Of a stretch of DNA of 55,025 bases, positions 5,942-54,052 are shown piece after piece (position 1 is the first letter of the stretch; each line of letters begins with the position of its first letter). Where the stretch lies: positions 1 through 55,025 of IMG/VR virus record IMGVR_UViG_3300027759_000115; one strand, written 5' to 3'. This stretch comes from a virus. Lineage: Duplodnaviria > Caudoviricetes. The notes under the pieces are model-generated. The model made no database searches and was not told the origin of the DNA. It saw nothing but the letters and a program-made list of their open reading frames with translations. The translations under genes were made by a program, and so were the position numbers.

Positions 5942-8107
5942 TTAGAATGCGCCACCCGCCAAACCACCAGTGATCTGGCCTGTTGACGGGTTGCAGGTTA
6001 TCGACGAGTTTACCAATTGCCCAAGATTTCCGGTAGTGGCTGACACGAATGTCAGATAGTTGGTGGCATTGGTTGAATTGGCGGTGATCGCCGTGTTTGT
6101 TGCATTGGTTGCGTTTGTGGCCGTCCCAGTCAAAGATGCAGTGATCGTCCCGGCAGTGAAGTCGCCCGATGCGTCCCTGGCAACAATTGCACTGGCCGTG
6201 TTGGCGCTGGTTGCCGTGGTGGCGCTGTTGGACACCTTCCCCGCAGTGGCAATGGTCGCCAAGTAAGTGTCGGTGATCGCCGTGGCGTTCCAAGTTCCTG
6301 CCGTCAGTGTCCCAACCCCAGTGATTCCGGTGTACGAGCCTGTGATGTAAGCAGAGCCCACAGTCCCAGAGGTGATCTGGTTGCCGTTGATCGCAATTGG
6401 CGTGGTCGCCGCCAAAGTCAATTGGCCCTGGGCGTTGACCGTAAAAGTCCCCACCGATGAAGCCGACCCATAAGCCGCCGCCGTCACCGCTGTGTTGGTG
6501 ATGCTGAACTGAGTGCCCGTCAGGGTCAGGCCAGTGCCAGCGGTGTATGCGCCAGAGCCTGAGAACTGAATCCATGTCACCGGGCTTGTGCCGACAACGG
6601 TCACCGGGTCGGTTTGCACCCAGCCAGTGTTGCCGTACAAAGTGCCGTTTGAGACAAAGGTGAAGTCACCGCTTGCCATCTCGGCGGCAGTGTCAAAGTC
6701 GGTTGCACGGGTGAGGACTGTGCCCCCAGTCGCCCAGGTGTAGATGCCGTTGTTGGCTTGCGTGGCTTCGTTCTTCACGAGCACACGGTCGCCATTGAGT
6801 AGCGTGTACCCATCCAAGGTGGTCAAGGCCACCGACAAGGTCAAGGTCGCCCCAACACCAGCCGTGCCGTTGTTGTAGGTCACCGTGCCGCCAGTGATTG
6901 ATGCAAGGGTTCCAGGGGTTGCCGCCGCACAAGCCGCATGGACATGAAGCCCCTCGGCCACCGCATCCACATACTGCTTGGTTGCCAACTGCAAAGCAGA
7001 GGTCGGGTCTTGCGTCACAGCAACGGAAGTCAGCCCACCCAGGGTCAGGCTTGAGCTTCCCAAGCTGATTGCGGTTGTACCAACGGTCAAAGATGAGTTG
7101 GTCAGGCCAGAATTGGGGATGTTGGAAAACGTGTTGGTTAAACCGCTGATCGACTTGCCGATCAGGGTCTGAGTTCCACCTAAAGTCACCACAGTGGAAT
7201 CAATCGATATTGTTCCGGTTGTGGTGATGGGCCCACCAGTTAAACCAGTGCCGGTGGCAATGTTGGTGACGGTGCCAGTTCCGCCAACTGCCGCCCAATA
7301 GGTCAAAGAGCCATCAGTGGCCAAAACACGACCGTTAAACCCGGTTTGACTGGGCAAAAGATTGGTCAAGGCACCATTTGCCGTGCTTGCGCTAGTGCCG
7401 CCACGAGCAATGTTGAGCGTGCCTGAGGTGATCTGTGTGGCAGAAATGCTGATTGCGGTGTCCGTCACCAAGGTCAATCGACCATAGGTGTCCACCGCAA
7501 AGACCGGAACAATACTTCCAGATCCGTAGGTTCCTGCAACCACACCAGAGGCTGACAGCCCAAAAGTTGGGTTGCCGCCAGACCCCGTCCCATTCGTGAT
7601 GGATATTTGGCCGCTCACACCGGTCAACGTCACCGGGCTGAATGTTCCGCTGGCCGTGGCCAAAATGCCCGTGCCGGTTATCCCGGCCACGTTGGACAAC
7701 ACGGCACCAAGGCCGATTGTGGGGTCACCAGCCACTCCATCGCCATTGGCAATGGTAAGACCTGCATTGACCGCCAAAGTGCGCCCTGTGAGCGTATTTG
7801 AGCCCGTTTTGACCTGTATACCGGTGGGGCTGGAGTTTAACGACAAGGCCGCACCAGTCAGGTTGATCTGAAGGGTTGATCCTGCGCCGTTGTCAGTGAG
7901 CGACAAACCGCTACCGGCGGCAATTTGCCTTGCATTGGTCAACCCAGCAGTCGATCCAACCGTCAAGAACGGGTAATTCAATGCCCCTGCACCAGAAATA
8001 GCGGCGGATGTGGTCTGTACAGTCACTCCATTTTGGACGATTGGTACAGCTTCCGTCCCAGTCAACGCCTGAGCCTGTGGGAGTTGGGTGATGGTAATTT
8101 GTGCCAT
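5942..8107 (-). CDS. Tail fibre / tail structural protein
   Basis: 721 aa G/T/S/A-rich; ATKQYVD and GDRVLVKNE...NGIY motifs typical of phage fibres. Confidence 0.8.
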   Translation of the reverse strand: MAQITITQLPQAQALTGTEAVPIVQNGVTVQTTSAAISGAGALNYPFLTVGSTAGLTNARQIAAGSGLSLTDNGAGSTLQINLTGAALSLNSSPTGIQVKTGSNTLTGRTLAVNAGLTIANGDGVAGDPTIGLGAVLSNVAGITGTGILATASGTFSPVTLTGVSGQISITNGTGSGGNPTFGLSASGVVAGTYGSGSIVPVFAVDTYGRLTLVTDTAISISATQITSGTLNIARGGTSASTANGALTNLLPSQTGFNGRVLATDGSLTYWAAVGGTGTVTNIATGTGLTGGPITTTGTISIDSTVVTLGGTQTLIGKSISGLTNTFSNIPNSGLTNSSLTVGTTAISLGSSSLTLGGLTSVAVTQDPTSALQLATKQYVDAVAEGLHVHAACAAATPGTLASITGGTVTYNNGTAGVGATLTLSVALTTLDGYTLLNGDRVLVKNEATQANNGIYTWATGGTVLTRATDFDTAAEMASGDFTFVSNGTLYGNTGWVQTDPVTVVGTSPVTWIQFSGSGAYTAGTGLTLTGTQFSITNTAVTAAAYGSASSVGTFTVNAQGQLTLAATTPIAINGNQITSGTVGSAYITGSYTGITGVGTLTAGTWNATAITDTYLATIATAGKVSNSATTATSANTASAIVARDASGDFTAGTITASLTGTATNATNATNTAITANSTNATNYLTFVSATTGNLGQLVNSSITCNPSTGQITGGLAGGAF

Positions 8108-8108
8108 T

Positions 8109-8480: not shown

Positions 8481-9539
8481 TTATCTCGTGTACACGCTGA
8501 TGTTGGGCGCGTAGTAGATCGGCGACTTGTCGCGGTTCTCAGCCTCAGCCATCTGGAAATACTTCTCAGCTTGGCCTTCCAGGTACTGAATCCTAACAAG
8601 CTCAACCTTGGGCAAGAGCAAGCCCATCTGGTGAGCCAGCATCATCTGGATCGCTTGGTAGAAGTACTGAGGAAGCTCCAACTCACCATTGAGGTCACCC
8701 ACATCCATCACTTGCCGGGAATACCAAATGGTCATCTGGTAGAACGGGTCGGACGGTGTTGGCCACAGAGTGATCTTGGCTTGCGGCAAAGTCCGGTTGA
8801 ACCAGTACTGATATGGCTGGTTGGCAGTGAAGTTTTTGTTGGGCAAATTGGTGTAATCATCTCGGTTTAACCGAGCCATGGTTACTTCGGTGGAGTTGTT
8901 GCCCACATAGAACTCAGCCACGTTCAGGGTGCCACCACCCGTTTCCCGCATGCGGTAAAACGGAGCGGTGACGCCGGGATCAATGTCGTACCACAGCCAA
9001 GTGCCAGACACCCAAGTGGTGACACCAGTATCTTCCAACAAATTCCATGTGACCCCATTATTCGACCACTCCAAAAGGATGTGGAACGACCCCGATGTGG
9101 CAGGCAGAATACCAATTGAACCGGCATAAATTGGGTTTCCCACCCCGTAATTGATGGTGATGTTGCCGTTGGGTGATGTTTGCGCATCGGACGTGGTGAC
9201 ATCATTGTCGAATGCCAATGCGGCATTACCAGACGATGCGGAAACACTTCCAGTGGGGCGTTCCATGCGGCGATACAGGGCATTGAGCACGTCATTGCCA
9301 CCCACGGGTAGCAAATACTCGTACTGATCCATGTTCAAGCCATAGACCTTCTTTTCAATCGCCCAGTAATTGATGCCCTGGTTGATCAGGTTGCTGAGGA
9401 TGAAAAAAAGCGCCTGCTTTGAGGCTTGAACCTGCTCAACGGTCAGTTCTTCGGCCAATTTTCCCGCTTGACGGGCACCCTGGTCAATGAATTGCTGTAC
9501 CGAAACGACAGTTTGGCCAACGGTTCCGCTGTATGCCAT
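8481..9539 (-). CDS. Putative neck / head-tail connector protein
   Basis: 352 aa; LWPTP...W.SR pattern of adaptor proteins, with an inserted beta-rich domain. Confidence 0.55.
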   Translation of the reverse strand: MAYSGTVGQTVVSVQQFIDQGARQAGKLAEELTVEQVQASKQALFFILSNLINQGINYWAIEKKVYGLNMDQYEYLLPVGGNDVLNALYRRMERPTGSVSASSGNAALAFDNDVTTSDAQTSPNGNITINYGVGNPIYAGSIGILPATSGSFHILLEWSNNGVTWNLLEDTGVTTWVSGTWLWYDIDPGVTAPFYRMRETGGGTLNVAEFYVGNNSTEVTMARLNRDDYTNLPNKNFTANQPYQYWFNRTLPQAKITLWPTPSDPFYQMTIWYSRQVMDVGDLNGELELPQYFYQAIQMMLAHQMGLLLPKVELVRIQYLEGQAEKYFQMAEAENRDKSPIYYAPNISVYTR

Positions 9540-9547
9540 GAATTACC

Positions 9548-9799
9548 TCACCAGCCGGGACAATTCCAGCGCTTCAATGATGCTTTGGCCCTTGGCGCAT
9601 CACCTTTGGAGTGCTCCACCACACCGCTCATACGGGCGCAGAAGGAGTCCTTGCGTGACCCACCTTGGGGTTGGGGTGCCTTCAGATTTGATCCGGTTTC
9701 ACGGTTGTATTTTGCCCGACCTTTGGCAGTTAATCCAGCGCCCTTTGACACTGAAAGCTTCTCGCCACGGCCAACTGCCAACGATGGATTTTTTGCCAT
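9548..9799 (-). CDS. Small basic virion-region protein
   Basis: GLTAKGRAKYN...RKDSFCARM...RWNC, a conserved-looking phage peptide. Confidence 0.7.
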   Translation of the reverse strand: MAKNPSLAVGRGEKLSVSKGAGLTAKGRAKYNRETGSNLKAPQPQGGSRKDSFCARMSGVVEHSKGDAPRAKASLKRWNCPGW

Positions 9800-9802
9800 G
9801 AC

Positions 9803-9979
9803 TTACCAGCAAGAATTTTTTGCCGATCCACCAGTTTTCATTTTGGCGGTTTTTGCTGATTGCTTGAAGGCGTCAGCCGTTGGCGCACCCTTTGTCCCAG
9901 GCTTACGCATTTTCTCGCCAGATCCTTTAGCAATTCTTTGCTTTTTTGCAAAAATGTTTGCATACAAACCCTTTTTCAT
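9803..9979 (-). CDS. Small basic protein, 58 aa (not in ORF track)
   Basis: Manual translation MKKGLYANIFAKKQRIAKGSGEKMRKPGTKGAPTADAFKQSAKTAKMKTGGSAKNSCW; fills the gap between neighbours. Confidence 0.8.
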   Translation of the reverse strand: MKKGLYANIFAKKQRIAKGSGEKMRKPGTKGAPTADAFKQSAKTAKMKTGGSAKNSCW

Positions 9980-9982
9980 AAA

Positions 9983-10483
9983 TTACCAACAAGATTTTGT
10001 CTTGCCGCCTTTGCTGTAGGTGGATGGGGTGGATTTCTTTGCGGCCTGAATTCTGCTGGAAAGTCTGCCCATTTCGGTTTCCATGCCACGGGCCTCGCGC
10101 TCGGCTGGGGAAAGGTTCTGCTCACGGTCGGCCATCTTGTAGCCGCCACCACCCAAGCTCTCATACTTGGCCTTCATGGCTTGGTGTTGCTTCTCAAGAC
10201 CAGACAACCCAGCAGTGTCTTCCTTCAATCGCTTTTGGCTTGCGGCCTTGTCCTTGGCCATCAATGCCGCGCGGCCAGGGCCTGGGCGGCTAATTTTTGC
10301 CGCATAGGCCTGCAAATCCTTGATCAAGTTGGGCTGTTTCACGCCACCACCATCAGCCTTTTTGGCCGCACGCTTGACGGCATAGGCGATGGCCACGGCC
10401 TGCTTCTGGGGCTTGCCAGCGGCAATCTCAGCCTTGATGTTGGACTTGAACGCCTTAGGTGATTTGGATTTGATGAGCGGCAT
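9983..10483 (-). CDS. Basic protein with GG motifs
   Basis: MPLIKSKS.KAF..NI..E..AGKP.KQAVAIA N-terminus; KADGG, YSKGG; ends SCW. Confidence 0.75.
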   Translation of the reverse strand: MPLIKSKSPKAFKSNIKAEIAAGKPQKQAVAIAYAVKRAAKKADGGGVKQPNLIKDLQAYAAKISRPGPGRAALMAKDKAASQKRLKEDTAGLSGLEKQHQAMKAKYESLGGGGYKMADREQNLSPAEREARGMETEMGRLSSRIQAAKKSTPSTYSKGGKTKSCW

Positions 10484-10486
10484 ACA

Positions 10487-10768
10487 TCACCCGCAGAAAA
10501 TGGTCACTGCCGCGCTTGCTGGCAATGTGACGTGAATATCTGTGTTGAAGCGAATACCGTTGCCAGGAATTAACGTATAAATCACCGCAGTGTTGGTTGT
10601 GATGTTTAAGCGCAAACGCTCAGTACCACCAGAACCGCCATCACGAAACACAATTTCCCCGGCAACACCGCCAGAGGCCAGTTGGTAACCAGCAAGGTTT
10701 GTTGCGCCAGCGTACATCGTGCCAGTCGCATCTTCATGGACGGCGAATACATTCGTCAATGTTGACAT
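10487..10768 (-). CDS. Small beta-rich virion protein
   Basis: 93 aa, IPGNGIRF motif, GGAGA RBS. Confidence 0.7.
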   Translation of the reverse strand: MSTLTNVFAVHEDATGTMYAGATNLAGYQLASGGVAGEIVFRDGGSGGTERLRLNITTNTAVIYTLIPGNGIRFNTDIHVTLPASAAVTIFCG

Positions 10769-10782
10769 ATCTCTCTCCGATT

Positions 10783-10806
10783 AAAAGCGGGGGCCGAAGC
10801 CCCCAC
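10783..10806 (-). terminator. Rho-independent terminator
   Basis: GGGGGC-TTCG-GCCCCC hairpin followed by a T-run on the - strand. Confidence 0.75.
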
Positions 10807-10812
10807 TTAGGT

Positions 10813-12096
10813 TTAGCACATCATGCCGCCGCGTTTCTTTCCTGCTGGAGATACTGTTACAGACTTTTCAGTTTGAGTAACAGAACCTTGCCCTTTAGAT
10901 GCACGGTCTGAATTTATTTTTTCAGCCGTTGCCCTACGGGCCTCTCCCTCAAACAGCTTCTTGCGCTCATCGCCCTTGAAGTAACCACTAGGGTCAAAAG
11001 ATTTGGCAATGTGACGTCCAACACTCTTGATTGGGTCAAGAATCATGTTGCGCATTGACTCATTCTCTGCCTTTTCATTAGCATAGTGAGCGTCATACGC
11101 ACCATCGGACATATCACCACCAGTAGCCTTCTTTACAACCTTGCCACCCTTTTTAAAGGTGCCAGACTGCAAGCTGTTGGCTATTGGCCTTGAGACGGGC
11201 TTGCGTGGCATTGCGACGGGCTTGCCTGTGTCAACAGTTCCCCCCGTCGCGTAGGCTTTTTTTGCGGCAAGCCCTCCCATGCTGTAGCCACCGCCATTGC
11301 CTTTTTTAACGGCACCAGTGGTGGTGTTGGTCACGCCGGGTTTGGCAGTGTTAGCAGGCCGGTTTTCCCAATCGACGTTGCCGCCTTTTGCAAAGCCACC
11401 TGCGTTGCCCATCCTCACGCCGCCGCCAGACTTGTAGCCACCGGGAGCGCCGTCTTTGACTTCGCCCGTGGTGCCGCCGGTCATGCCTTTTTTGGTCGTA
11501 ACCATTTTGGTCGTGCCGGTTTTACTCATGATGATGCCGCCCTTGGCTTTCTTCATGATGCCACCAGAAGTCATGCCATGCGCCCTTTTGGCCGACATGG
11601 ATTCATGGTGCTTCAGTTCTTTTTCCAGCGAAGCGCAATCAGCACTGGTCGAACCACCCTTCTTCATGCCAGTAAGGGCACGACGAACTTTGGCGGCACG
11701 AGACATGCGTGCGGAAGCAGGCATAGCGGCCAGGGCAGTGGGGCTCATGGCGCTCATGGGAGAGCGCATGCCACCAGCCATACCACCGGCCATAGGGGCC
11801 GCAGGGGCCGCAGGCATGGCCCCAGGCATCATCCCACCCATTTGCTTGTGAGCGACTTTGCCGCCCTTGGCATACTGGTTGGGGTTCATTGCCTTGCGAC
11901 GATCAGCCATGGAGGGCTTTTTCGGAGCTTTGCCATGTTCAGCGGCCTCAAAGTCAGCCGGTTCGCAATGCATGGCTTTGTGCCCTGCCATGCCACCAGT
12001 TGCCATCTTGGAGTGAACATTGCCACCTTTTTTGAGCTTCAGAATAACTGAAGGCTCAGTGGTCATCATTTTGACCATCGGTTTGAATTGACCCAT
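10813..12096 (-). CDS. Low-complexity K/G/M-rich protein with more than a dozen xxxGG motifs (putative internal head protein)
   Basis: LKKGG, MATGG, YAKGG, MKKGG, KAKGG, YKSGG, FAKGG, YSMGG, YATGG, FKKGG, KATGG, KKRGG. Confidence 0.75.
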   Translation of the reverse strand: MGQFKPMVKMMTTEPSVILKLKKGGNVHSKMATGGMAGHKAMHCEPADFEAAEHGKAPKKPSMADRRKAMNPNQYAKGGKVAHKQMGGMMPGAMPAAPAAPMAGGMAGGMRSPMSAMSPTALAAMPASARMSRAAKVRRALTGMKKGGSTSADCASLEKELKHHESMSAKRAHGMTSGGIMKKAKGGIIMSKTGTTKMVTTKKGMTGGTTGEVKDGAPGGYKSGGGVRMGNAGGFAKGGNVDWENRPANTAKPGVTNTTTGAVKKGNGGGYSMGGLAAKKAYATGGTVDTGKPVAMPRKPVSRPIANSLQSGTFKKGGKVVKKATGGDMSDGAYDAHYANEKAENESMRNMILDPIKSVGRHIAKSFDPSGYFKGDERKKLFEGEARRATAEKINSDRASKGQGSVTQTEKSVTVSPAGKKRGGMMC

Positions 12097-12108
12097 GATG
12101 CCCTCCTA

Positions 12109-13356
12109 TTAGGCTTGAGTTACACCAAGAGCACCAACGCGAGTTGCGTTAGGGCCAACAGCAATGCCGGGTAGGGCAATGGCCATCACCGTGCGAACGA
12201 TACCGTTCGATGAGGTTGCGGGAGCGTATGTACCGCGAACATCACCAGTGGTGGTCGTAGCAGTTGCAGTGTCAGCGGCCACAAACGTGCCAGCATCTTG
12301 TGCCAGGGTGTTGTTGCTCTTGACGCTTGCCACATAAGCCACGTTGGCCACACGAACCGGAATGCCCAACACGTTGGTTGTGCCAACAGTCAAAGCGGTA
12401 CCGGTGGCGGCACTTACCGTCACAGAAGTGATGAGGTAGAAGGCTTTCAAACCATTGACGGCAGTGCTTACAGCCGCGCTGGAGGTGATTGCTTCGCTCA
12501 TTGCTTGACCGTAGACATCAAAGCCCGACACAGTCACAGTCACAGGGGCCACACCCAAGGTGTAGGTCAAACCTGTTGGCGTGCCTGCGGTGGTCACAAC
12601 TGCCGCGCCTGCTGTAGTGGTCAGGGTTGCGGATGTAGCTGTCACAGCGGTCAGGATGTAGGTTGTTGGGTTGGTGTAGCCAGTGATAGTACCTGTGCCA
12701 CCTAAGGTGCCAGAGATAGTCAAACGCTGACCAGTTACCAAACCAGACTGTGAGGTGAAAGTGATTTGACCACCAGTGCCTGCGATCACGACGCTTGACA
12801 AGGTTGCAACTGCGGCAGTTGCGGTTGTCACGCTGACGCCGCGAGGAACATCAAGTGCCAAAGCAGAAGTGCCAGCGGTTGTAGTGACCGACCTCACAGA
12901 AGTACCAGCGGTCAAGGTCAATGAACCAGCGGCGGCAGGAGTTTGTGAAGCGGCAATGTTGTTTGCAACAGCGGCCTGAGGAACCACATCCCAAACGTAG
13001 ATACGACCCAAGGGGCCAATACCTAAGCTCATTGGGGCTGGATTGTCAAAAGGCTCTAAATCATGAAGAGTCAACGCAGTAGTGTTTGCCACGTTGATTG
13101 CTTGGTTCAGCGTGTAGGTGCCAGCGCCACCAGTACCAGTGCCAAAGGCAGTGATGTAGGTGCCATCGGTCACGCTAGTGCCGTCAACAAACATGCCGAC
13201 AGTAATTGGTGCGCCAAAGCCCACAGCAGTCACGGTCAGGGTTGTAGAGGAAGAACCACCAGTGCCGCCAATTGCGGTGGTGGAGTAATTGCGCAGACCC
13301 GTACCCATGTACGTTTGGGCAGGGCCTAAAAATAGGTCATCGGAAAATTGAGGCAT
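12109..13356 (-). CDS. Virion structural protein (capsid decoration/fibre-like)
   Basis: 415 aa T/A/G/V-rich, immediately after the capsid gene. Confidence 0.65.
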   Translation of the reverse strand: MPQFSDDLFLGPAQTYMGTGLRNYSTTAIGGTGGSSSTTLTVTAVGFGAPITVGMFVDGTSVTDGTYITAFGTGTGGAGTYTLNQAINVANTTALTLHDLEPFDNPAPMSLGIGPLGRIYVWDVVPQAAVANNIAASQTPAAAGSLTLTAGTSVRSVTTTAGTSALALDVPRGVSVTTATAAVATLSSVVIAGTGGQITFTSQSGLVTGQRLTISGTLGGTGTITGYTNPTTYILTAVTATSATLTTTAGAAVVTTAGTPTGLTYTLGVAPVTVTVSGFDVYGQAMSEAITSSAAVSTAVNGLKAFYLITSVTVSAATGTALTVGTTNVLGIPVRVANVAYVASVKSNNTLAQDAGTFVAADTATATTTTGDVRGTYAPATSSNGIVRTVMAIALPGIAVGPNATRVGALGVTQA

Positions 13357-13389
13357 TTGATCTTCTCCTTGAAAAGCTTGATCAGATTT

Positions 13390-13421
13390 AAAAAAAGGGC
13401 TGGCTTTTTACACCAGCCCTT
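13390..13421 (-). terminator. Rho-independent terminator after the major capsid gene
   Basis: AAGGGCTGG-loop-CCAGCCCTT followed by a T-run. Confidence 0.85.
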
Positions 13422-13427
13422 GTCACT

Positions 13428-14342
13428 TTACACGCCGGGTGTACCGTAGACTGCACGGGGATCGGTGAATCCGACCGTGTAGCGCTCGGTGGCCTTGTAG
13501 CGCATGGAGTCGGTTTCAAAGTCACCTTCCATGGTCTTCTCAAGGCGGCGACGCATCAACAGCTTCATGCCTTCAGGCGCGTCAGTCTGAACCCACCATG
13601 CGGCGGCATTGGTCAGACGCGACAGAACAGCGGCACCTTCGTCCAGCAAGCCGATAGACTTGACGGGGTTGATGTCGTTGTTGGCATTGCCGGTACGCAA
13701 AACGCTCTTCAACAGCACTTCGGCCTGGAAGATGTTGCCAGGAGCCACGATCAATTGACGGGGCACCAAACGAATCTTCTTGCCGTTGTTGTCCACTGCT
13801 TGGCGGATCTGAATCAGCATTTGCTCCAAGGAGGTCTGAGACAGGTTGGCGGCGGTGGTCAACTGGTTGCTGAAGGTGCCATTCACGATGGGGTGAGCGG
13901 TGTTGGTCAAAGACACACCGTCGCCGCCAGGATAGGCACTGTTGAAGGCTACGTTCAACACGTTGGCTGACAACAATTCTTTGGTTTCCACCAAGGATTG
14001 TGCCAAGTGGCGTGCATAAACTTGACCGATACGGATATGGTCGCCGTCTTCCACCAACACTTTGGTCAAAGCGAAGGCCAAGCCATACACCTTGTACACA
14101 TAGCGTTGCAGGAAGAGAACGCCACCTTGCTGATAGGTCACTGGGGTGCCATCGGGCAATTGGGGCGCGGCTCCAAATCCATAAAGGACGGGCTCTTCGT
14201 GATAGTTACGGGGAATGCCGTCTTCCTCGCGGAACACACGGCTCCACTCGTCGGCACGTTGGTCATAGACTCCATCGAAACACTCATTGAGGATTGGCTC
14301 AACGATTGAACGGAAGTCCGTACTGCGCATTGGTGCGGCCAT
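13428..14342 (-). CDS. Major capsid protein
   Basis: 304 aa; GGDGVSL...HP, LIVAP, DF.T..MRYKATERY..GF.DPR motifs; follows scaffold and is followed by a terminator. Confidence 0.88.
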   Translation of the reverse strand: MAAPMRSTDFRSIVEPILNECFDGVYDQRADEWSRVFREEDGIPRNYHEEPVLYGFGAAPQLPDGTPVTYQQGGVLFLQRYVYKVYGLAFALTKVLVEDGDHIRIGQVYARHLAQSLVETKELLSANVLNVAFNSAYPGGDGVSLTNTAHPIVNGTFSNQLTTAANLSQTSLEQMLIQIRQAVDNNGKKIRLVPRQLIVAPGNIFQAEVLLKSVLRTGNANNDINPVKSIGLLDEGAAVLSRLTNAAAWWVQTDAPEGMKLLMRRRLEKTMEGDFETDSMRYKATERYTVGFTDPRAVYGTPGV

Positions 14343-14358
14343 TTTCTAGCTCCTTGTA

Positions 14359-14955
14359 TTAAGCAATTGCGGTGACAGCACCGAAGAATTGCGAGTTGGC
14401 ACAAACAACGCGCACGATGGTGTATGCGTCACCCCAGTCATTGTCCACATAGGGAGCGATGTCAACGACACGCATCTGACCCTGGACACCGCTACCAACG
14501 GCTGATGCGGCATCCAAAGTTGCCTGCGACAAACCCGTGGTGGTGGAACCAGCAGTCACGTTGCTGAAGTTGTACTCGTTACCAATGGTGGTCTGAGCCA
14601 TCGAGCCGCTTGCCTGGATTTCATAAACGATGTTTTGGTCGTTGTAGAAATAGGCAACGCACGAACCAGCGATGTACGCTGTGTTGGCAGGCCAGTTGTT
14701 GGACACGCGACGACGACCAGTGGTATCAGTCCACTCGACACCTGCAAAAGCTCCAACCCACGCACCTGAGGTGGTGGCAGGCAGGATGGTGCCCAAGGTA
14801 CCGCCAATGGCAGTCGTTTGATAGCGCACGGGCTGGCCTTTGAGGATGGCCGTGTTGTACGCAGAGGGAATACCGCCAGCAAGCGCCTGAGCGCGATCCA
14901 GACCTGAGGGATGGAACGCAGGGCGCAAGCCAAACGGAGCAGAGGTTGAACTCAT
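14359..14955 (-). CDS. Putative minor capsid / cement protein
   Basis: APFGLRP...GAFAGVEWTD..G; directly upstream of the capsid gene. Confidence 0.6.
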   Translation of the reverse strand: MSSTSAPFGLRPAFHPSGLDRAQALAGGIPSAYNTAILKGQPVRYQTTAIGGTLGTILPATTSGAWVGAFAGVEWTDTTGRRRVSNNWPANTAYIAGSCVAYFYNDQNIVYEIQASGSMAQTTIGNEYNFSNVTAGSTTTGLSQATLDAASAVGSGVQGQMRVVDIAPYVDNDWGDAYTIVRVVCANSQFFGAVTAIA

Positions 14956-14964
14956 AGAGACTCC

Positions 14965-15513
14965 TTAACCGGAAAAAACCGGAGTGTTGGTTGGTTGCTG
15001 TTCAATAGAGCCAAAGCCTTCACCTTCCACGCTCACCAATCGCCGTCCGTTGCTGTCACGCTGATTTTGGAGACTTTCCTGTTGAACAAGGATCTTCTCA
15101 GCCTCTTCACGAGGTTTCTCGTGGTGCTGGTAAGTCATGATCTCTTGGTAAATATCCATCGGCAGTTTGAACAACAACATCTCATTGCAAGAGATGAAGC
15201 CAACATGCTCACCAGACTTCACGCGATATTCTTCATAGCCCGGTATCTCATCCGCTTTCACGGGAACGTACCCAAGGCGCATCCGTTTATCTATGCTGTC
15301 GTAGCTGTTGGTTGTGGAGAGCCAGCAAAGGTGCCAACCATCGACCGATGGAAGTTTTGGCAATGCTGATTGCGTCCATTCCTCGCTCCACATCTTTCGA
15401 CGTTCCTGCGCAGAAATGAACTTATCTTCGGGTGCTCGGCGGCTTGCGTCCTCGCTGGAGCGATCATTGCGACCACCAGCACCTAGAGATTTTTTTAAAC
15501 GAGTTTCAGTCAT
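14965..15513 (-). CDS. Conserved-looking hypothetical head-module protein
   Basis: 182 aa ORF between scaffold and capsid genes, GGAG RBS. Confidence 0.7.
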   Translation of the reverse strand: MTETRLKKSLGAGGRNDRSSEDASRRAPEDKFISAQERRKMWSEEWTQSALPKLPSVDGWHLCWLSTTNSYDSIDKRMRLGYVPVKADEIPGYEEYRVKSGEHVGFISCNEMLLFKLPMDIYQEIMTYQHHEKPREEAEKILVQQESLQNQRDSNGRRLVSVEGEGFGSIEQQPTNTPVFSG

Positions 15514-15527
15514 ATCAGTTCTCCGAT

Positions 15528-16508
15528 TCAGCGACCGCCTTGGCGGTCAAATTTAATGAATTGTTCTATCATTCGACGCTTGCGCTCGGGGTTCTCCCAT
15601 GCACCGGCTTCCTTCATTGCTTTGACCCTTTCAGGTGAAAGAACAAATTGGTTCCGGTTGGTTCCCCCGTATGCGGCAGACGCTTCACGACCTGAACTAC
15701 CCACTACATTCCTCGGTTTTCTGACGACTGGATTATCGTCGTTGTGGCCATTGTAACGATGGGGCAGTTCTTTTTGCAAACGGCTGTCAAGCTCGTCCCA
15801 ATAATCGGTATCCGCAGGATCCCAACCTTGGGTCACCATCAACTCATCAATCTTTTTTGCGACCTTTGAATCGGTGTCAGAGGCGTCGGGCCGGTACCAA
15901 GAATTGCGGCGCATCCAGTCTGCCGCACCACGCTGTACAGCAGGGTCTGGCAGGAAATCCTGGGTTGGTGCCTTGATCTCACGCTCGGCTTGCGACCGGT
16001 GGGTTTGGAGCTTGCGCACATCCTCCTGGGCTGACTGCCACAGGGTCTGCGCTTCGACCATTCCCTCACCATCGTTGTTGGATGTGGCCTCCATCATCTT
16101 CATCTTGGCGTATTCCAGGCGTACCTGGGCGTCCTCAATGTTCTTGTCGATGCGCACCAGGGATTGCTCCTTGGTGTTGCGCTCCAGACTGGCCAATCGA
16201 CGCTTGAACTCCTCGTTTTCACGGGCCAACGATTGAAGTCGGACGTCCTTTTCCTGGTTCGTTTTGCGAATCAGGTCTTTTTTGGCGCGTCTACGGCTCC
16301 TTTTGGCGTCCCTGAGGCTGTCAGAGTCGTCGGGATGATCATCATCCTCATCAGAGGGCTGTCCACCCTCCGCTTTTTGAGTGATTTGGGCCTGACCACC
16401 GTCAGAATTCCCATCAATCAGCAAATTTTCCGGTAATTCGACCACCGCAGAGCCATCTTGTGACTCCTGAATGTCCAAATCATCGACCTTTTGTTCGGTA
16501 GTTGCCAT
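15528..16508 (-). CDS. Putative scaffolding protein
   Basis: Acidic N-terminus, long coiled coil, W..RN.W and Y..ELD.RL motifs; position in head module. Confidence 0.7.
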   Translation of the reverse strand: MATTEQKVDDLDIQESQDGSAVVELPENLLIDGNSDGGQAQITQKAEGGQPSDEDDDHPDDSDSLRDAKRSRRRAKKDLIRKTNQEKDVRLQSLARENEEFKRRLASLERNTKEQSLVRIDKNIEDAQVRLEYAKMKMMEATSNNDGEGMVEAQTLWQSAQEDVRKLQTHRSQAEREIKAPTQDFLPDPAVQRGAADWMRRNSWYRPDASDTDSKVAKKIDELMVTQGWDPADTDYWDELDSRLQKELPHRYNGHNDDNPVVRKPRNVVGSSGREASAAYGGTNRNQFVLSPERVKAMKEAGAWENPERKRRMIEQFIKFDRQGGR

Positions 16509-16518
16509 GTTTTACCCC

Positions 16519-16974
16519 TTAAACGTAAGCTTTGAAGCTCAGAGGGTCATCCGTCACCTTGGCGATCAGTTCGTGATCGTTCAAAGTCATGAATAACACC
16601 GGATCTTCACCCTCTTCACCCGTAACCTCGCGCTCCCAGCGGTCGCCGCCCCATTTGGGGACGCGAACGTAGTCGCCGACCTGCGCCCATGAGCCCTCGG
16701 GCCATGATTGCATGGTGTCACGGTTTTTGAATGCCAAGGGGCCTATGGCTACAACTCTGCCGATCATGTTGTTCCACTTTTCGTTCTCTTTGGTTTCCTC
16801 CACCAAGATGATCCGACCAGAGGTTTTACGTTTGATGCGGCGCAATTGAACAATCACACGTCCACCGTATGGTTCTTGCCCCGGTTTAACCGGAGGGAAG
16901 GCCCATTCAAGTTCGACGGGATCGCTCACACCCTCATGCCCACTGATAGTGGGTATTTTTTCTTTCTCACTCAC
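16519..16974 (-). CDS. groES: GroES/Cpn10-like co-chaperonin
   Basis: P.GGRVIV, KTSGRIIL mobile loop, GRVVAIGP, VGD.V...KWGG, LND.ELIA; GTG start after AGGAG. Confidence 0.85.
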   Translation of the reverse strand: MSEKEKIPTISGHEGVSDPVELEWAFPPVKPGQEPYGGRVIVQLRRIKRKTSGRIILVEETKENEKWNNMIGRVVAIGPLAFKNRDTMQSWPEGSWAQVGDYVRVPKWGGDRWEREVTGEEGEDPVLFMTLNDHELIAKVTDDPLSFKAYV

Positions 16975-47430: not shown

Positions 47431-50196
47431 TTAACCTTTCACCATCTTGAGGTAGTCAAGAGGAGATTTTGCCTTTGGAGGGATTTTAGATGTAGGAGCC
47501 GATCTTTTGTGCGCTCGGATTTCCTCTCTCATTGCATCAAGCATTTGCGCACCTTTTTTGTTGTCGCCACCACCCAGTGCAGTTACCAGGGGCTCGGGGA
47601 AGACATATTCACCGTCAGCAATCTTGGCGGGGACGGCGTTGCCACCCTCCTTGTACTGATGGGGCACCTGACCCTGGAAGTTGGCCAAAGTCAAGGCACC
47701 AGCCTTGCTCGACCCATCCCCCAGTGCCGCCACGGTGTCGGCGTCCATGACATAGTCCCCATCATGGAGCATTGCTGGGATGTCATCGGACTGCCCAGTA
47801 CCCCGCCCATTGGCGTAGAACCCGGTTAAACCGGTGATGAATTCAGGGTTGTGACCCTTGGGTGCCGCCTTGGCATATTTCTCTGGCAAACCGCCCTTTG
47901 CGTGGCCGACCAACCCCTGTTTAAGTTGGGGGAGCTTGGCAGGTTCGGTAGAGGTGGCTTTGCGTGAACCCATGGACAAAAACGGGTTTTTGCTTTCAGC
48001 AAACTTGGGCAAAGACTTGTCCAATTCAGATGAAAACTGGGATAAAACACTGCTCACAGAAGATCCCTGTGAGTATTCCTGAGGGGCAATACCTCGATCA
48101 GCCAGCACGTTCATCAATGTGGGGTCTACGTTGTCATAAAGCTGTTTCAACGGCTGGAATGGGTTCATGACAGATGGCGCTTTTTTGGTTTCCAACATCT
48201 GAGCTTTTGTGTCCAGCCATGGGATATTGCCCATGGTATTTTGTTGGGTCGCAGGCAAGCCACCAGTTGGAGTGGTTGAAGTGGTTGGGGTAGTCGAAGT
48301 GGTTGGGGTAGTCGAAGTGGTTGGGGTAGTTGTTGGTGTTGCAGTCGGCGTTTTAGGATTAATTGGCGTAGAGGGCAACGGTGAAGTTGGTTTGGTTGGA
48401 TCATCAGAAACAGGCACGCATGATCGGCTTTCCAAGTCATACACATACCCATCAGGGCATTCAATAGGCTCTGGTGGTTCATCCTCATCTGCCACGCACA
48501 TACTGCCATTCCAGTGGTACCCCGGTGCGCAGTCCTCAGGGCCTTCTTCAGGAGGTTCCTCGGGCGGCTCCTCAGGAGGCTCCTCAGGAGGTAATTCAGG
48601 TGGTGGCTCTTCGATGGGCAATGCGCCTATTGGTTCAACAGGAATTTGATCGTCAATGGGCAAAGCCCCAATCTGCTTCTTTTTGTTTTCTTCATCTATG
48701 CGATTTTGCTCATCAATAGCGGCTTGTCGTGCGGCGGCTTCCGCATCTAACCTGTTTTGCTCATCAATAGCCTTTTGCCGTGCATCAGCTTCTGCATCAA
48801 GTCTATTCTGCTCATCAATGGCTCTTTGTCGTGCGGATGCCTCCGCATCTGCCCTGTTTTGAGCATCGATCTCAGCCTGCCGCGCAGAATCCTGAGCGGC
48901 TGTGGTTTTCATGTACTGATCAAAACTTTGATTCAATTCATCTTGGTTTTGTACATACGCAAAGTTGTTCAACTCTTCCGGTGTTGCGTCCCGCCCATAA
49001 TTTGATTGAAACTTAGCGTTTGCATCCATGCCATTTTTGATGGCCTGCAAACCAGATGTGGTTGCCGCAAGCAAGGCGGCTTTGCTTGGATCTTTACCAC
49101 TCAACTCAGCACGCAAAGTGGCATTGAAAACCTTTTGAACGCTTGGGGGAAGCTGTGAAAAACCGTCAATCTTCCCCATGATCGTGCCGACAGCGCCACC
49201 AACCCCGCCATTGACAAAGGCCGCAAGCGGATCACCTCCGGTTAAACCGGCAACAACAGCATTTCCCGCCGCACTGCCAACAATGCTATTTGCAACAGCA
49301 CCCATATCCACGGCACTGCCCAAAGCTCCACCCACATAGTCGGCAACATACGGCGCGGCCATGATGGTGCCAATGGTGGTTGCGGCTTTGTTCCAGTCCC
49401 CAGTGTAGGTTGCCTCGCCAGCGGCCCTGGACATTGTGTATATCGCGCCCGTGCCTGGGCCAGCAAACACATCCAACAATATGGGCGTCAGTGGGCCAAG
49501 TTCTTTCAATGCGCCTCGGGCCATATCAGCAAATGGCCCTTGGTACTTGTAGTAGGCGTATTGACCCAATCCACCTGTACGACCATCTGCCGTTATCCAA
49601 TCTTGCTGAACACGCTCACCGCCTGGGGCAAGTTTTGGCTGGGTAATGTATGAAATTGGAGCGCCAACTTGCATACTTGGGTGAGGGTTCCCAAGGCCAA
49701 GAATAGGTGGATTGTTGGCGTCAATTTTGTAGCCGCCATGAGTGTTAAGACCAAGCTTATTCCAATCATCAACCGACCAAACATAGCCATTGGGGTTCAT
49801 TACACTTTGCATACCCTCCGGTAAGCTGTACTGAACGGCATTCTTGAACGTGGCAGGATTAAGAAATTGTTGGGTGTAAAGCTGGTATCCATCGCTTGTG
49901 ACTAAGCCTTTTTTGACATAGTCATCGGGTATAAAAACATATTCTTTACCGTCAACCCCGGTAATGTTTGCGTATTTGCCCTCGCCATCCCAATAATTCC
50001 ACGTTGGTTTATTGCTAGCCGCAGTTGGCAGTTCTGAGTTGAGGTACTTGGCGCTTTCAGCTTTTTTTGCTTTTAGCTCTTCCGCTTTCTTTGCTTGCGC
50101 CGCTTCATACTCTCTTGCTACACGCGCATCATTTTCCGCATGTTGCGCCGCAAGATCTGCATTGATTTTGTCGATTGCCGCTCTTAGATTGCTCAT
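47431..50196 (-). CDS. Large internal virion protein with repeats and a duplicated C-terminal SDDIPAML/DGEYV domain
   Basis: 921 aa; A/G-rich hydrophobic region, 17-aa repeats, EEPP and TTPTTS repeats, two DG[DE]YV...ALG.G modules. Confidence 0.65.
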   Translation of the reverse strand: MSNLRAAIDKINADLAAQHAENDARVAREYEAAQAKKAEELKAKKAESAKYLNSELPTAASNKPTWNYWDGEGKYANITGVDGKEYVFIPDDYVKKGLVTSDGYQLYTQQFLNPATFKNAVQYSLPEGMQSVMNPNGYVWSVDDWNKLGLNTHGGYKIDANNPPILGLGNPHPSMQVGAPISYITQPKLAPGGERVQQDWITADGRTGGLGQYAYYKYQGPFADMARGALKELGPLTPILLDVFAGPGTGAIYTMSRAAGEATYTGDWNKAATTIGTIMAAPYVADYVGGALGSAVDMGAVANSIVGSAAGNAVVAGLTGGDPLAAFVNGGVGGAVGTIMGKIDGFSQLPPSVQKVFNATLRAELSGKDPSKAALLAATTSGLQAIKNGMDANAKFQSNYGRDATPEELNNFAYVQNQDELNQSFDQYMKTTAAQDSARQAEIDAQNRADAEASARQRAIDEQNRLDAEADARQKAIDEQNRLDAEAAARQAAIDEQNRIDEENKKKQIGALPIDDQIPVEPIGALPIEEPPPELPPEEPPEEPPEEPPEEGPEDCAPGYHWNGSMCVADEDEPPEPIECPDGYVYDLESRSCVPVSDDPTKPTSPLPSTPINPKTPTATPTTTPTTSTTPTTSTTPTTSTTPTGGLPATQQNTMGNIPWLDTKAQMLETKKAPSVMNPFQPLKQLYDNVDPTLMNVLADRGIAPQEYSQGSSVSSVLSQFSSELDKSLPKFAESKNPFLSMGSRKATSTEPAKLPQLKQGLVGHAKGGLPEKYAKAAPKGHNPEFITGLTGFYANGRGTGQSDDIPAMLHDGDYVMDADTVAALGDGSSKAGALTLANFQGQVPHQYKEGGNAVPAKIADGEYVFPEPLVTALGGGDNKKGAQMLDAMREEIRAHKRSAPTSKIPPKAKSPLDYLKMVKG
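48271..48330. repeat. 18 bp tandem repeat (TTPTTS) in a CDS
   Basis: GTGGTTGGGGTAGTCGAA about three times. Confidence 0.85.
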
Positions 50197-50820: not shown

Positions 50821-52835
50821 GGGTTGCCCGTTCCACGGACATCGCCGGTTTCCAATGACAACAAGATACGACCGGCAAAGTAATTGCCGTTTTGGGTGTT
50901 GCTTCCAAAGCGCAAACGCATCTCACGGCGTTGCTCACGCATGTCCACCTTCAGTGTGGTGTCGTCAAAGTAGTATGGATCAGACGGCTGGTCTGTGTCG
51001 TCAGCATAGCCCTTGCCAGTGACTATGAGGTACATCTGCTGGGCCTGTACAAAGTCAGGCTCAACCCGCTCACAGCGTGTCCACAGGTTATCCCCAGCGC
51101 CCTGGTTGGAGCCGACCAACCCGGTCATGGCACCCAGCGTGGGGGTTTCAAAGAACGAGTCAATGGCGTTTACCGTGTTGAGGTAGATCTGGTTGGTGCC
51201 GGTTTCATGTTGCCACATGGTGTATTTGCCGGTGCTGTTGGCCTCCGTACTGCCCCACACGGGGAAGCGGAAGACCTCGGAAAAGGTGCCTGCTGAACGA
51301 CGAGCGCCCAGGGCCTCACCGGCGTCATACCAGCACTTCTCACGCACGTTGTAGATGATCGCATCCGTGCATTCGGTTGCATCCCCGCGGGGGTAGAACC
51401 ACCAGACCTCGCCCCAGCGCGGAACCTTGGTACACCATACTTTTTGCCGCTGGTTGTAATTGACGTTGTCAAAGAACCAGTTCATGTTTTGCGTGTTTGG
51501 AACCTCTTGGACAACACCGTTGTACATCAGGAAGCGATCCACACCAGCCCAATAAAAGATGCCGTCATACTCCACCACGCACTGGCTGGACATGATTGAA
51601 GACTGGCTGGTTATCAGGTCATACCGCCAGTAGAAGGTGGCACCGCCCACGGTTGTGGGGCTGTAGGACACCCTAACCACTGAATCTGTCGTCCAAAACA
51701 ACCCGGCAGGAGAGGTGGTACCACCACGCAGTGGGAGGCCCTTGATCACCTTGCCGGTGGACACTGAGGTTTCGTTGGCGTCCGCCGCAGTCCAATTGTT
51801 GAAGTCGCCTGCGGAACAGTTCTTGATCAACCCGTAATTGCCATAAACAAACAAATACGGGTGCAACATCACCACCCCACCGGATATGGACACGTTGTTG
51901 TCAAAGGTCAGGGTCACGGTCGCAGATGCGGTGGCCGCTTGGCTCAAAACCGCCGTCCAAACGCTTGAAACGAGGGACGCCGACACCACGGTGGTGCCTG
52001 CCGGGATACCCGACCCAGTCACTGCAACCCCTGGCCCAATGGCCAAAATGGTCGTTGCAAAGGTCACACTGGTCGAGGCGTTCGTGGTGGTGCCAGAGGC
52101 CGTAAAAACGCCGACAGCGGCCACTGTAGCCCCTCCAAACACCCCAAACAGGGGTCTGGTGTTGATGGTGCTGGTGATGTCATTCAAATTCTGGCCGGGA
52201 TGGGCAATTATTTGGTTCACCCCACCGCCGGTGGAGTCGTATCCAATGTCAAACTGCCACAAGTTATCTGAGCTTGGGCTGAAGGTGGTCAGGGCGCTCA
52301 CAGTCCCCACAAACCCCGATCCAGTGCCACCAACGCTTGCGGCCAACACAGTCAATGTGTCGGTCAGAGCGTACCCAAAGCCAGCCGTTGTGATGGTCAC
52401 GCTGGCGATCTTGTTCAAAGCCACCACAATGGTCGCCAAGGCACCCGTTCCAGTACCGCCCTGGAGAGCTACAGCGGTGTAGGTTCCGTTGGTGTACAGC
52501 GACCCTGCGTTGGTGATTGTGACCGTCAGAATGGGGCCTGTTGGAAGGATGGGAGTGGGGCCAAACCCCACGCCATCATCGTTGTCAGTTGTCCACTGCT
52601 CCAACCCAGCGCTGTAGCCTGAAACCACATAGTTCAAGCCGTTTTGGGAGGACATGGTCATTCCACGGGATATGCCGGTGCCGTTCAGGAACATCCCACG
52701 GTACCCGCCCATCTTCCTTGGGAGCTTGTTTTGGAAACGCACCCATGAACCGTTCACATAGGACGGAGCATTGAATAAGGTTCCATCCCTTTGGATGCCG
52801 GGAAGGACGGTTAACTGAACAACCTTTGCGGTCAT
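50817..52835 (-). CDS. Tail nozzle / tubular protein B-like (DNA stabilisation) protein
   Basis: PGIQRDGT...WVRF...PRKMGG N-terminus, GEVWWFYP, beta-propeller-like composition. Confidence 0.7.
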   Translation of the reverse strand: MTAKVVQLTVLPGIQRDGTLFNAPSYVNGSWVRFQNKLPRKMGGYRGMFLNGTGISRGMTMSSQNGLNYVVSGYSAGLEQWTTDNDDGVGFGPTPILPTGPILTVTITNAGSLYTNGTYTAVALQGGTGTGALATIVVALNKIASVTITTAGFGYALTDTLTVLAASVGGTGSGFVGTVSALTTFSPSSDNLWQFDIGYDSTGGGVNQIIAHPGQNLNDITSTINTRPLFGVFGGATVAAVGVFTASGTTTNASTSVTFATTILAIGPGVAVTGSGIPAGTTVVSASLVSSVWTAVLSQAATASATVTLTFDNNVSISGGVVMLHPYLFVYGNYGLIKNCSAGDFNNWTAADANETSVSTGKVIKGLPLRGGTTSPAGLFWTTDSVVRVSYSPTTVGGATFYWRYDLITSQSSIMSSQCVVEYDGIFYWAGVDRFLMYNGVVQEVPNTQNMNWFFDNVNYNQRQKVWCTKVPRWGEVWWFYPRGDATECTDAIIYNVREKCWYDAGEALGARRSAGTFSEVFRFPVWGSTEANSTGKYTMWQHETGTNQIYLNTVNAIDSFFETPTLGAMTGLVGSNQGAGDNLWTRCERVEPDFVQAQQMYLIVTGKGYADDTDQPSDPYYFDDTTLKVDMREQRREMRLRFGSNTQNGNYFAGRILLSLETGDVRGTGNP

Positions 52836-54052
52836 TAAAACGCCCCGCCAAGGATACCGGCAGGCACCAAAAGCCCGGTGGTTGTGAAGGTGGCCGCATT
52901 TGCCCCTGCAACCGCAATACCAAACTGGTTGGATGCTGGCAAATACAAGCCCGTTGTTGCGTCCCCTACGAACGACAAAGATGGGTTTGCGGCTGTGCCG
53001 TTGCCAATGCTCAATGCATTGATGAAGCTTGATGTTGAGGTTTGAGCGTTGTAGACGTTAGTGCCATCGCAAATGGCAATGATCGTTTGACCCTGGGGCA
53101 GGATGATGGTTGATGCGCCAACAGACCCCGTCTTGAAGGTCAGCGTAAATGCCCCTGTGGTGTTGTTTTGCAAACTGTAAAGCTGAACCGTAGCGGGAAG
53201 GATCACATTACAGTTGGATGTGAGGACACCCTGGTATTCCTGAATGATGCTTGAAGCCTCGGCAGAAGTCAATGTCACCGTCCCGCCAGTGACGTTTTTG
53301 GTCAACTGGGTGAAGAAGAACGTGGCTGATCTGCCGTAGGCATAGCTGAAGTAATTGGTGCCGTTGGAGGCCACCACAAACGACTCGTCAATTTGAAGCT
53401 GTGCGCTGGCATTTCCATCAATGGTGTTGGCTCCATTTGTGGCAATGTTCAAAATGCCGGTGCCATCGTTTTTGATAATTACATACCAGCTTGCACCAAC
53501 GCCCGATGCGGATGGCAATGTCAAAGTCCCCGCACCACTTGACCACACATACATTGATGCGCGATCAGAGGGTAAAAATGTGTAGTTGGAATACGAAAGC
53601 GTCACGGGCACACTGCTGTTCAGTGTGGTGTTGATTGCGGTTAAACCGAACCCGGCCAAGGTGGCGGCATTGGCCTGAGACACCCCAGCACCAAATGTCA
53701 CCGATGCCCATACCCCGTTTTGTGTGGAGTTGTTGGTCAAGTAAATGTACTGAGCAATACCTGATGCAACGCTGACCACGGTGGCCAGTGCAGGATTGGT
53801 CACTGTGAATGAGTTAGCACCAGTGTTTCGGATCAGCACTGATTGACCCGTAGATACTTCCGTTGCCGGTGGAAGAATAAGCTTCAAGTTGGCGACAGTG
53901 GCCGACACATCAATGATGTTTGCCACAACACTTGAGGTGTTGCCGTTGACTGGCCACTGCAAAGTGGTGTCGGCGGATATGGTCAGGCTCTCATAGCCCA
54001 CCTGGGATGGGCTGATGGTCTGGCCAGTGTAGGGATTTACATATGAGGTCAT
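52835..54052 (-). CDS. Tail structural protein
   Basis: 405 aa S/T/G-rich; TLTLP.A, DGTN, PSLSF.GD..TGLY. Confidence 0.7.
   Translation of the reverse strand: MTSYVNPYTGQTISPSQVGYESLTISADTTLQWPVNGNTSSVVANIIDVSATVANLKLILPPATEVSTGQSVLIRNTGANSFTVTNPALATVVSVASGIAQYIYLTNNSTQNGVWASVTFGAGVSQANAATLAGFGLTAINTTLNSSVPVTLSYSNYTFLPSDRASMYVWSSGAGTLTLPSASGVGASWYVIIKNDGTGILNIATNGANTIDGNASAQLQIDESFVVASNGTNYFSYAYGRSATFFFTQLTKNVTGGTVTLTSAEASSIIQEYQGVLTSNCNVILPATVQLYSLQNNTTGAFTLTFKTGSVGASTIILPQGQTIIAICDGTNVYNAQTSTSSFINALSIGNGTAANPSLSFVGDATTGLYLPASNQFGIAVAGANAATFTTTGLLVPAGILGGAF

Follow-up and report, generated by a model that had tools for sequence, protein, structure and literature searches.

Dispersed palindromes in a tailed-phage genome as the probable sites of an orphan ParB-family protein with which they co-evolve

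The virus record IMGVR_UViG_3300027759_000115 (Duplodnaviria; Caudoviricetes), analyzed here in its entirety and called the window throughout (55,025 bp, 98% complete by CheckV), carries twelve exact copies of the 11-bp palindrome CGGTTWAACCG and, at 39152-39946 on the minus strand, a gene for a 264-residue orphan ParB-family protein (PHROG 1033, 'ParB-like partition protein', 6.6e-20). We consider it very likely that the palindromes are the cognate DNA sites of this protein, and comparison of related phages establishes, at the level of sequence, that the palindromes and the helix-turn-helix (HTH) of the ParB-like protein form one co-evolving unit. An original prediction, made from the letters of the window, had proposed the palindromes as loading sites of this protein acting as a sliding clamp. 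The assignment of the sites is upheld by co-variation, by sites embedded in the gene itself and by a metagenome-assembled genome (MAG), while the clamp part stands as an analogy with known proteins.

The twelve exact copies, and two further copies with one mismatch, all start where the original prediction had placed them. They are given below with the coding sequence (CDS) that contains them, the residues they encode and their fate in three related genomes (G001, G002 and G015):

7135-7145, one-mismatch site TGGTTAAACCG in the tail-fiber gene 5942-8107
8863-8873, exact site in CDS 8481-9539, encoding RLNR at residue 223; position retained in G001, G002 and G015
16882-16892, exact site in CDS 16519-16974, encoding VKP at residue 28; present in G001 as TGGTTTAACCA
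18338-18348, exact site in the portal gene 17374-19851, encoding RLNR at residue 502
26084-26094, exact post-terL site, intergenic, 15 nt past the terL stop and just before the ribosome-binding site of a small open reading frame (ORF)
28482-28492 (exact) and 28515-28525 (one mismatch), in CDS 28272-28622, encoding VKP, upstream of the terminase genes; both positions retained in G001, with a nearby site in G002
32415 and 32544 (span 32415-32554), two exact sites in the RuvC-like resolvase gene 32119-32577, encoding GLT; retained in G001
39427-39437 and 39442-39452, exact tandem pair within the ParB-like gene, 15 bp apart; the encoded GLTEPGLTEP is part of the disordered linker
47823-47833, exact site in the 921-aa virion gene 47431-50196, encoding GLT at residue 788
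49239-49249, exact site in the same virion gene, encoding GLT at residue 316
53638-53648, exact site in the tail gene 52835-54052, encoding GLT at residue 135

Only the copy at 26084 is intergenic; the other eleven exact copies are located in CDSs and use three frames (seven encode GLT, two VKP and two RLNR). The leucine codon TTA, which accounts for 87 of the 1244 leucine codons genome-wide, is used by nine of these eleven. Extended palindromes include TCGGTTnAACCGA and CCGGTTnAACCGG, with four copies each in the window, and 15-mers at 28482 and 39442. The distribution over frames, the frequent use of TTA and the extension to 13-15 bp had all been described in the original prediction and were reproduced.

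The enrichment is far beyond what sequence composition or coding constraint would generate. In 100 dinucleotide-preserving shuffles, 0.03 exact copies are expected, or 0.62 copies with at most one mismatch, and the observed numbers were reached in none of the 100. Markov models of orders 1-5 give 0.006-0.25 expected copies per strand variant, and CGGTTWAACCG is the top over-represented word of the genome among 9-, 10- and 11-mers. The claim of enrichment, which the original prediction would have given up had it disappeared under a codon-aware null, also survives that comparison: when synonymous codons were permuted inside each of 74 CDSs (93% of the genome), 1000 shuffles gave a mean of 1.13 copies and a maximum of 3, against 12 observed. 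The intergenic copy at 26084 stays unshuffled in this procedure and so adds one to every run, and the single out-of-frame entry in the CDS list (40008-40175), which contains no motif copy, has no material effect on the counts. The reading that the palindromes are an artifact of chance, composition or codon usage is therefore refuted, every null being exceeded by the observed copies; moreover, the flanks are unrelated among the copies and the sites use a rare codon, and to this reading and to spread by a small mobile element together we give practically no credence.

The central base of the sites is T from 8863 to 28515 and A from 32415 to 7135, which divides the circle into two arcs, an arrangement with a probability of about 0.5-1.5% by a hand count of arrangements; the pattern is not repeated in G002, whose sites read G G C G C C. 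The reading frame, frame 2 forcing GLT and frame 1 forcing VKP, accounts for which central base is used but not for the existence of the arcs. Every site whose coding strand has T is in the GLT frame and falls within one arc, and the other arc contains the VKP, RLNR and intergenic sites. The spacing of the sites is not significantly even (largest gap 8522 bp versus a simulated median of 12128; P = 0.058).

An AlphaFold2 model of the ParB-like protein (30 homologs; predicted local distance difference test 80.5) consists of an N-terminal domain (residues 1-112), helices 121-128 and 132-139, a further helix 141-164, a disordered linker (166-187) and a single long coiled-coil helix (190-263). The recognition helix begins at residue 132, and the linker encoded by the tandem sites is disordered. 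The top Foldseek matches are M. xanthus ParB-CTPgS (2e-7), B. subtilis ParB, Noc and KorB, with sulfiredoxins (Srx) lower, and the superposition covers the first ~140 residues, through the HTH (about 138-147 aligned columns). The nucleotide-contact and hydrolysis residues of M. xanthus ParB (MxParB) are Q52, R54, G73, E93, R95 and N127 (PMC13229309); in a HMMER alignment to 7bnk, the window protein retains Q16, R18, G36, R59 and N91, the equivalents of Q52, R54, G73, R95 and N127, and its GFHRYFA fits GxxRxxA. We take the fold to be that of ParB, and the N-terminal domain, as modeled, is a ParB/Srx fold.

The window protein has 909 homologs at E<=0.001, and an alignment-based scan of IMG/VR yielded 80 loci. 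In 55 of the 80, an odd palindrome of at least 13 nt is found within residues 140-215 of the ParB ORF, where 0.056 per locus would be expected by chance, and such palindromes are 12.7-fold denser there than elsewhere in the ORF. These embedded palindromes are lineage-specific and share the frame NNN-R-R-T-Y-n-R-A-Y-Y-NNN; most relatives have one or two per gene, often one, and the central base is only W in some lineages and only S in others. They are not confined to the gene: in all eight whole records, the embedded palindrome is also the genome's top palindrome with arms of 5 or 6, present in 3-14 copies. MW202545.1, the only related record in the phage collection, illustrates the principle, being syntenic with the window and encoding a ParB homolog ~51% identical to the window protein. 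It has no copy of the window motif and eight copies of ACTAGTCWGACTAGT, two of them in the linker of the ParB homolog, where they encode TSQTS twice. Among relatives, the portal is 77-83% identical versus 42-60% for the ParB-like protein. Every complete relative examined has a ParB-like gene; among the portal-homolog contigs of at least 44 kb outside the ParB list, five of seven were checked, and four carry a ParB-like gene, whereas the fifth, G015 (86% complete), is missing the whole replication region.

The changes in site sequence follow two residues of the HTH. We write the recognition helix as V-S-x1-x2-F-V, in which x1 is D132 and x2 is T133 in the window protein. Over 48 non-redundant loci, the residues and the half-site bases pair as follows:

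x2 = P, A at half-site base 5, 18 of 18
x2 = S, G at half-site base 5, 15 of 15
x2 = T, G at half-site base 5, 9 of 11
x2 = K or H, G-A at half-site bases 4-5, 4 of 4
x1 = Q, ACT at half-site bases 1-3, 20 of 21

Histidine at x1 goes mostly with TGG (6 of 7) and aspartate at x1 with C-G at bases 3-4, and D132 has the greatest summed mutual information of all 264 positions. The x2 rule is seen again on Q, H, K and A backgrounds, which is more than relatedness alone would produce. In a held-out test on loci from bacterial genome records whose dipeptide had already been tabulated, the predicted half-site was found in the linker in eight of ten. The co-variation of palindrome and HTH that the original prediction had proposed to look for in related phages is borne out. 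The Cro-like HTH protein encoded next to the ParB-like gene was considered as the reader of the sites and rejected; its HTH is conserved even between genomes whose palindromes are unrelated to each other.

When the sites are mapped onto orthologous genes, positions persist while sequences change. Two positions are always filled: in all 12 of the 12 genomes in which both genes are present, the lineage's own type of site is found inside the ParB-like gene and again within about 50 nt past the end of terL. Some further positions are shared by subsets of genomes (tail fiber near residue 170, a 352-residue protein near residue 225 and the ORF upstream of the terminase). The rule extends to genomes in which the DNA-reading module itself is different. 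In G011 and G012, a different ParB-like N-terminus is fused to the same C-terminal coiled coil, and the palindrome of G012, CCGCACCnGGTGCGG, which is unrelated to that of the window, has exactly two copies, one in the ParB-like gene and one after terL. The closest relative, G001 (L083-L085; ParB 86-87% identical, with D132S), keeps every window position and has mixed sites, nine of the type CGGTTnAACCG and four of CTGGTTnAACCAG (CTGGTT..AACCAG). The four changed sites are orthologous to window sites 16882, 28482, 28515 and 39427, which are C-type or near-C-type copies, and to judge from these sequences G001 may be a specificity change caught midway.

The host side points in the same direction. 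Homologs of the protein occur in Burkholderiales genome records, some within large contigs such as a 616 kb contig of Zeimonas arvi. A 4.8 Mb Roseateles MAG contains nine copies of the palindrome of its own element; every one is on the 72 kb contig that carries the gene, and the other 4.7 Mb has none. We conclude that the motif belongs to the element and not to the host. The search of host DNA suggested in the original prediction was made in this one MAG, and the palindrome proved to be confined to the phage-bearing contig.

These observations are consistent with a mechanism in which the protein would act as a dimer, joined through its C-terminal coiled coil, with one HTH per half-site. D132 and T133, the first residues of the recognition helix, would read half-site bases 3-5 (C-G-G). 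Protein and sites evolve jointly, the site sequence having changed many times along with those two residues, with two always-filled positions in the protein's own linker-coding DNA and in the gap after terL, and with a further 1-14 copies mostly in CDSs. By analogy with ParB, Noc and KorB, a site-bound dimer may then engage via its nucleotide-binding domain (NBD) and spread, marking or organizing the phage chromosome; spreading as a nucleotide-gated clamp is suggested by this analogy only.

Several observations weigh against this account. No perfect embedded palindrome of at least 13 nt is present in 25 of the 80 loci, and in Acidovorax phage AP1, a cultured phage with a related G011-type module, no repeated palindrome or shared word rises above chance. 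The site of G011, likewise present exactly twice, in the gene and after terL, is an imperfect 25-mer. That of G014 (L186-L188) is a non-palindromic 14-16-mer with 16 copies, of which the linker and the region after terL have two each, and which from its sequence looks like two half-site types joined without a central base. G001 retains nine C-type sites despite serine at x1. As for the recognition code, the co-variation counts come from related sequences and not from independent events, many positions outside the HTH also have high mutual information, and two of the ten held-out loci failed, L198 having no palindrome and L203 a different one. A canonical cytidine triphosphate (CTP) clamp, in particular, is disfavored by the nucleotide-binding domain. 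Pfam ParBc (PF02195), like every other Pfam model, has no match to the window protein at E<=0.01 and is precomputed for 5 among the 120 homologs listed; in a sequence profile search against the PDB, the closest match is sulfiredoxin, a user of adenosine triphosphate (4.9e-4, with ParB at 0.011); and the catalytic E93 of MxParB is replaced by an invariant phenylalanine (F57) and R94 by H58.

In G014, 12 of the 16 copies (e.g., L186:7105-7137) are in one orientation and four in the other. The helicase ORF of the same genome is 781 residues long versus ~507 (L188:7360-9705), reflecting an insertion that is either an intein or an endonuclease.

The genomic context of the ParB-like gene bears on its possible roles. 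Nearly all genes of the window, which is that of a tailed phage, are on the minus strand; the early block consists of Cro/YdaS-like, ParB-like, helicase and primase genes, and tail spike and fiber genes are also encoded. The relevant features are:

39977-40177, minus strand, YdaS/Cro-like HTH gene (PF15943 at 6.4e-12), directly upstream of the ParB-like gene
37632-39155, minus strand, superfamily 2 (SF2) helicase, its start overlapping the ParB-like stop
36593-37450, primase, after the SF2 helicase
32119-32577, RuvC-like resolvase
26110-27537, terL
17374-19851, portal
13428-14342, major capsid protein
700-1149, endolysin

The order ParB-like, helicase, primase, including the overlap, is kept in relatives and in Acidovorax phage AP1, and in each of the 12 genomes checked, the ParB-like gene is immediately preceded by a small HTH gene. 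A predicted complex of the ParB-like protein with the helicase scored 0.01 against a mark of 0.32, which is evidence neither way.

If the assignment of the sites is right, marking or organization linked to replication and packaging is the role that we favor, tentatively; KorB-like regulation is possible though doubtful, initiation of replication is unlikely, partition is most improbable, and other roles take the rest. Genome marking is preferred because the block from replication to terminase has an invariant anchor at either end and the other copies cover the genome. A KorB-like global regulator, whose clamps would slide from dispersed sites to promoters and perhaps be latched there by the Cro/YdaS-like protein, is an unlikely but serious contender: KorB itself sets a precedent as a distal-site CTP clamp locked by KorA, the small HTH gene is upstream in all 12 genomes checked, a conserved promoter-like TxGACx-17-CATAAT follows the invariant post-terL site at 40-240 nt, and the embedded site could autoregulate. 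On the other hand, 11 of the 12 exact sites are within CDSs, away from promoters, and a promoter scan is at chance level (13 found versus 9.9 expected). We judge it rather unlikely that the protein is a replication initiator like lambda O or SPP1 G38P, for which the in-gene tandem pair would be the origin, the helicase and primase would receive the handover and the remaining copies would act as secondary origins or for control. Such a role would suit sites in the linker-coding DNA of the binder's own gene, the overlap with the helicase and the primase that follows, and an N-terminal DNA-reading module that is exchangeable, in contrast to the constant C-terminal coiled coil and helicase. However, there are only one or two embedded sites, often one, and no iteron array; no strong AT-rich element is nearby, the lowest 40-nt GC within 300 nt being 0.35 (1st-5th percentile of the genome); ten other single sites in late genes and the invariant post-terL site are unaccounted for; and the helicase is of SF2, outside the known replicative hexamer families, and the fold is that of ParB, unlike known initiators.

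Partition of a plasmid prophage with dispersed centromeres, as in N15, would match the ParB family, the several palindromic sites and the lack of an integrase in a six-frame search of this 98%-complete genome for tyrosine integrases, and N15 SopB indeed uses four IR sites. We nevertheless regard it as highly improbable, because no ParA-type ATPase is found (AAA_31, no match at E<=1 in a six-frame search of the window) and because full-length homologs occur in large chromosomal contigs, including that of Zeimonas arvi, as well as in AP1, which has an integrase. The absence of both ParA and integrase had been noted in the original prediction. Moreover, the protein begins at the first NBD strand and has no room for an N-terminal ParA-contact peptide, and no repressor, protelomerase or plasmid replicon was recognized in Pfam and PHROG scans, which covered 50 of the 74 CDS calls, so that unscanned small ORFs could hide a DNA-binding or modifying gene. 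Assigning the palindromes to some other factor, be it restriction-modification or methylation, base modification, the terminase or the Cro-like protein, is scarcely more probable. Phage ParB homologs do activate 5mYOX thymine dioxygenases (PMC13229309), and one invariant site abuts terL. Against this, no Tet/JBP dioxygenase (Tet_JBP, PF12851) matches at E<=1 in a six-frame search of the window, and the oxygenase of relatives is PF13759, absent here, for which reason the thymine-dioxygenase link was rejected; no methyltransferase is found among the 50 scanned proteins; the Cro-like HTH is constant across differing sites; and the site varies with two residues of the ParB-like HTH and is replaced outright in genomes with a swapped module.

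We can also imagine a decidedly speculative reading, in which the protein-site pair would be a private identity tag of the phage chromosome, a self-encoded and fast-changing ParB 'barcode' for each lineage. If so, replication, organization or packaging would be reserved for matching DNA, excluding the host chromosome and co-infecting relatives; the in-gene copy would keep protein and site inseparable by recombination, with another copy at the terminase gene. Such a tag would explain the frequent resets of specificity despite a conserved portal, the kept positions with changing sequences and the mixed sites of G001.

The window system appears, from its sequence, to belong with ParB-parS, KorB and Noc as a new variant of that kind, and comparison with the best-described systems brings out what is shared and what is particular:

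(i) The original prediction had drawn the parallel with IncP KorB, which binds about a dozen dispersed palindromes with a variable central base, and with the dispersed centromere sites of N15. As a CTP clamp, KorB acts from distal OB sites, and KorA locks it. The window protein resembles the KorB of RK2 in its ParB fold and HTH, in palindromes spread over the replicon and in an adjacent small HTH gene. KorB sites relate to promoters, whereas the window sites are inside genes in 11 of 12 cases, and the window protein has no equivalent of the catalytic Glu, has a coiled-coil C-terminus and is found in a phage without ParA. RK2 also carries ParA (IncC).

(ii) Noc of Bacillus is likewise a ParB paralog without a ParA partner and with many dispersed palindromes, the NBS sites, and is among the best fold matches. 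It is a host chromosomal protein, whereas here a dozen sites lie on a 55 kb virus and specificity has been reset many times. Noc also has a membrane-targeting N-terminus. The specificity of Noc diverged from that of ParB through few residues of the HTH region (PMC7383237).

(iii) The lambda origin is inside the O gene, and oriL of SPP1 is in gene 38 and read by G38P. In both, the sites lie in DNA for a flexible inter-domain segment, beside replication genes, and co-vary with the N-terminal domain from one relative to another. The window sites are similarly in the binder's own linker-coding DNA, next to replication genes; the differences are another fold, one or two embedded sites, no clear unwinding element, and many more sites, including the one past terL.

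(iv) SopB of N15 is likewise a ParB-family protein encoded by a phage, and its several inverted repeats, the centromere sites IR1-4, are separate from one another. N15 has SopA and is a plasmid prophage, whereas no ParA was found in the window and homologs are in chromosomal contigs.

(v) The phage ParBs associated with 5mYOX are described as having an NBD, a short helical segment, a long disordered linker and a C-terminal dimerization domain, and are reported to have no obvious DNA-binding domain (PMC13229309). The window protein, an orphan phage ParB homolog too, has the same layout, the likeness being one of description only; the window lacks Tet_JBP, and the helical segment of its protein behaves, as far as sequence co-variation can tell, as a specific HTH. 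Replacing the linker of a 5mYOX-associated ParB by Ser-Gly reduced activity 4-8 fold in vivo (PMC13229309). If 5mYOX ParB genes also hold their site in linker-coding DNA, the Ser-Gly construct would have removed that site.

Orphan ParB-fold proteins on mobile elements and activators of thymine dioxygenases have been described (PMC13229309, PMC12704722, PMC11790492, PMC7205306); the former are common, and for almost all of them the DNA target and role are reported to be unknown (PMC12704722). A full-text literature search found no account of dispersed, self-embedded, co-evolving sites for a phage orphan ParB. For this large uncultured phage family of 909 homologs, the target may be read directly from the linker-coding DNA of the gene itself. 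The two-residue recognition rule is open to mutagenesis. The family would amount to a series of natural specificity switches within one ParB-type HTH and to a ready source of orthogonal protein-site pairs, and may be relevant to the phage ParBs that activate thymine dioxygenases. The two invariant site positions point to a role linking the replication module with the terminase region.

Some further features of the window and its relatives accompany these findings. A promoter-like element TxGACx-17-CATAAT with a conserved AAGGCATAAT is present at 25821-25849, ahead of the cargo and portal genes; it lies 40-240 nt downstream of the post-terL site and has equivalents in G002, G011, G012 and G014. 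The putative cargo gene (23893-25794), between terL and portal, encodes a 633-residue protein with a PHROG 30118 domain and an acetyltransferase-like C-terminus, which is probably a packaged cargo protein. A divergent early promoter region at 40206-40245 contains AACTATAACAC...GTGTTATAGTT, an inverted repeat that probably serves the Cro/YdaS-like protein as operator, and a related TGTTATAGTTT -10 region occurs again at 35500-35512. A PF13759 2OG-Fe(II) oxygenase gene, absent from the window, is 3-9 kb from the ParB-like gene in 31 fetched loci (e.g., L048:13681-14310). Homing endonucleases of the HNH-AP2 and GIY-YIG types are encoded in the window at 33212-33817 and 54049-54633.

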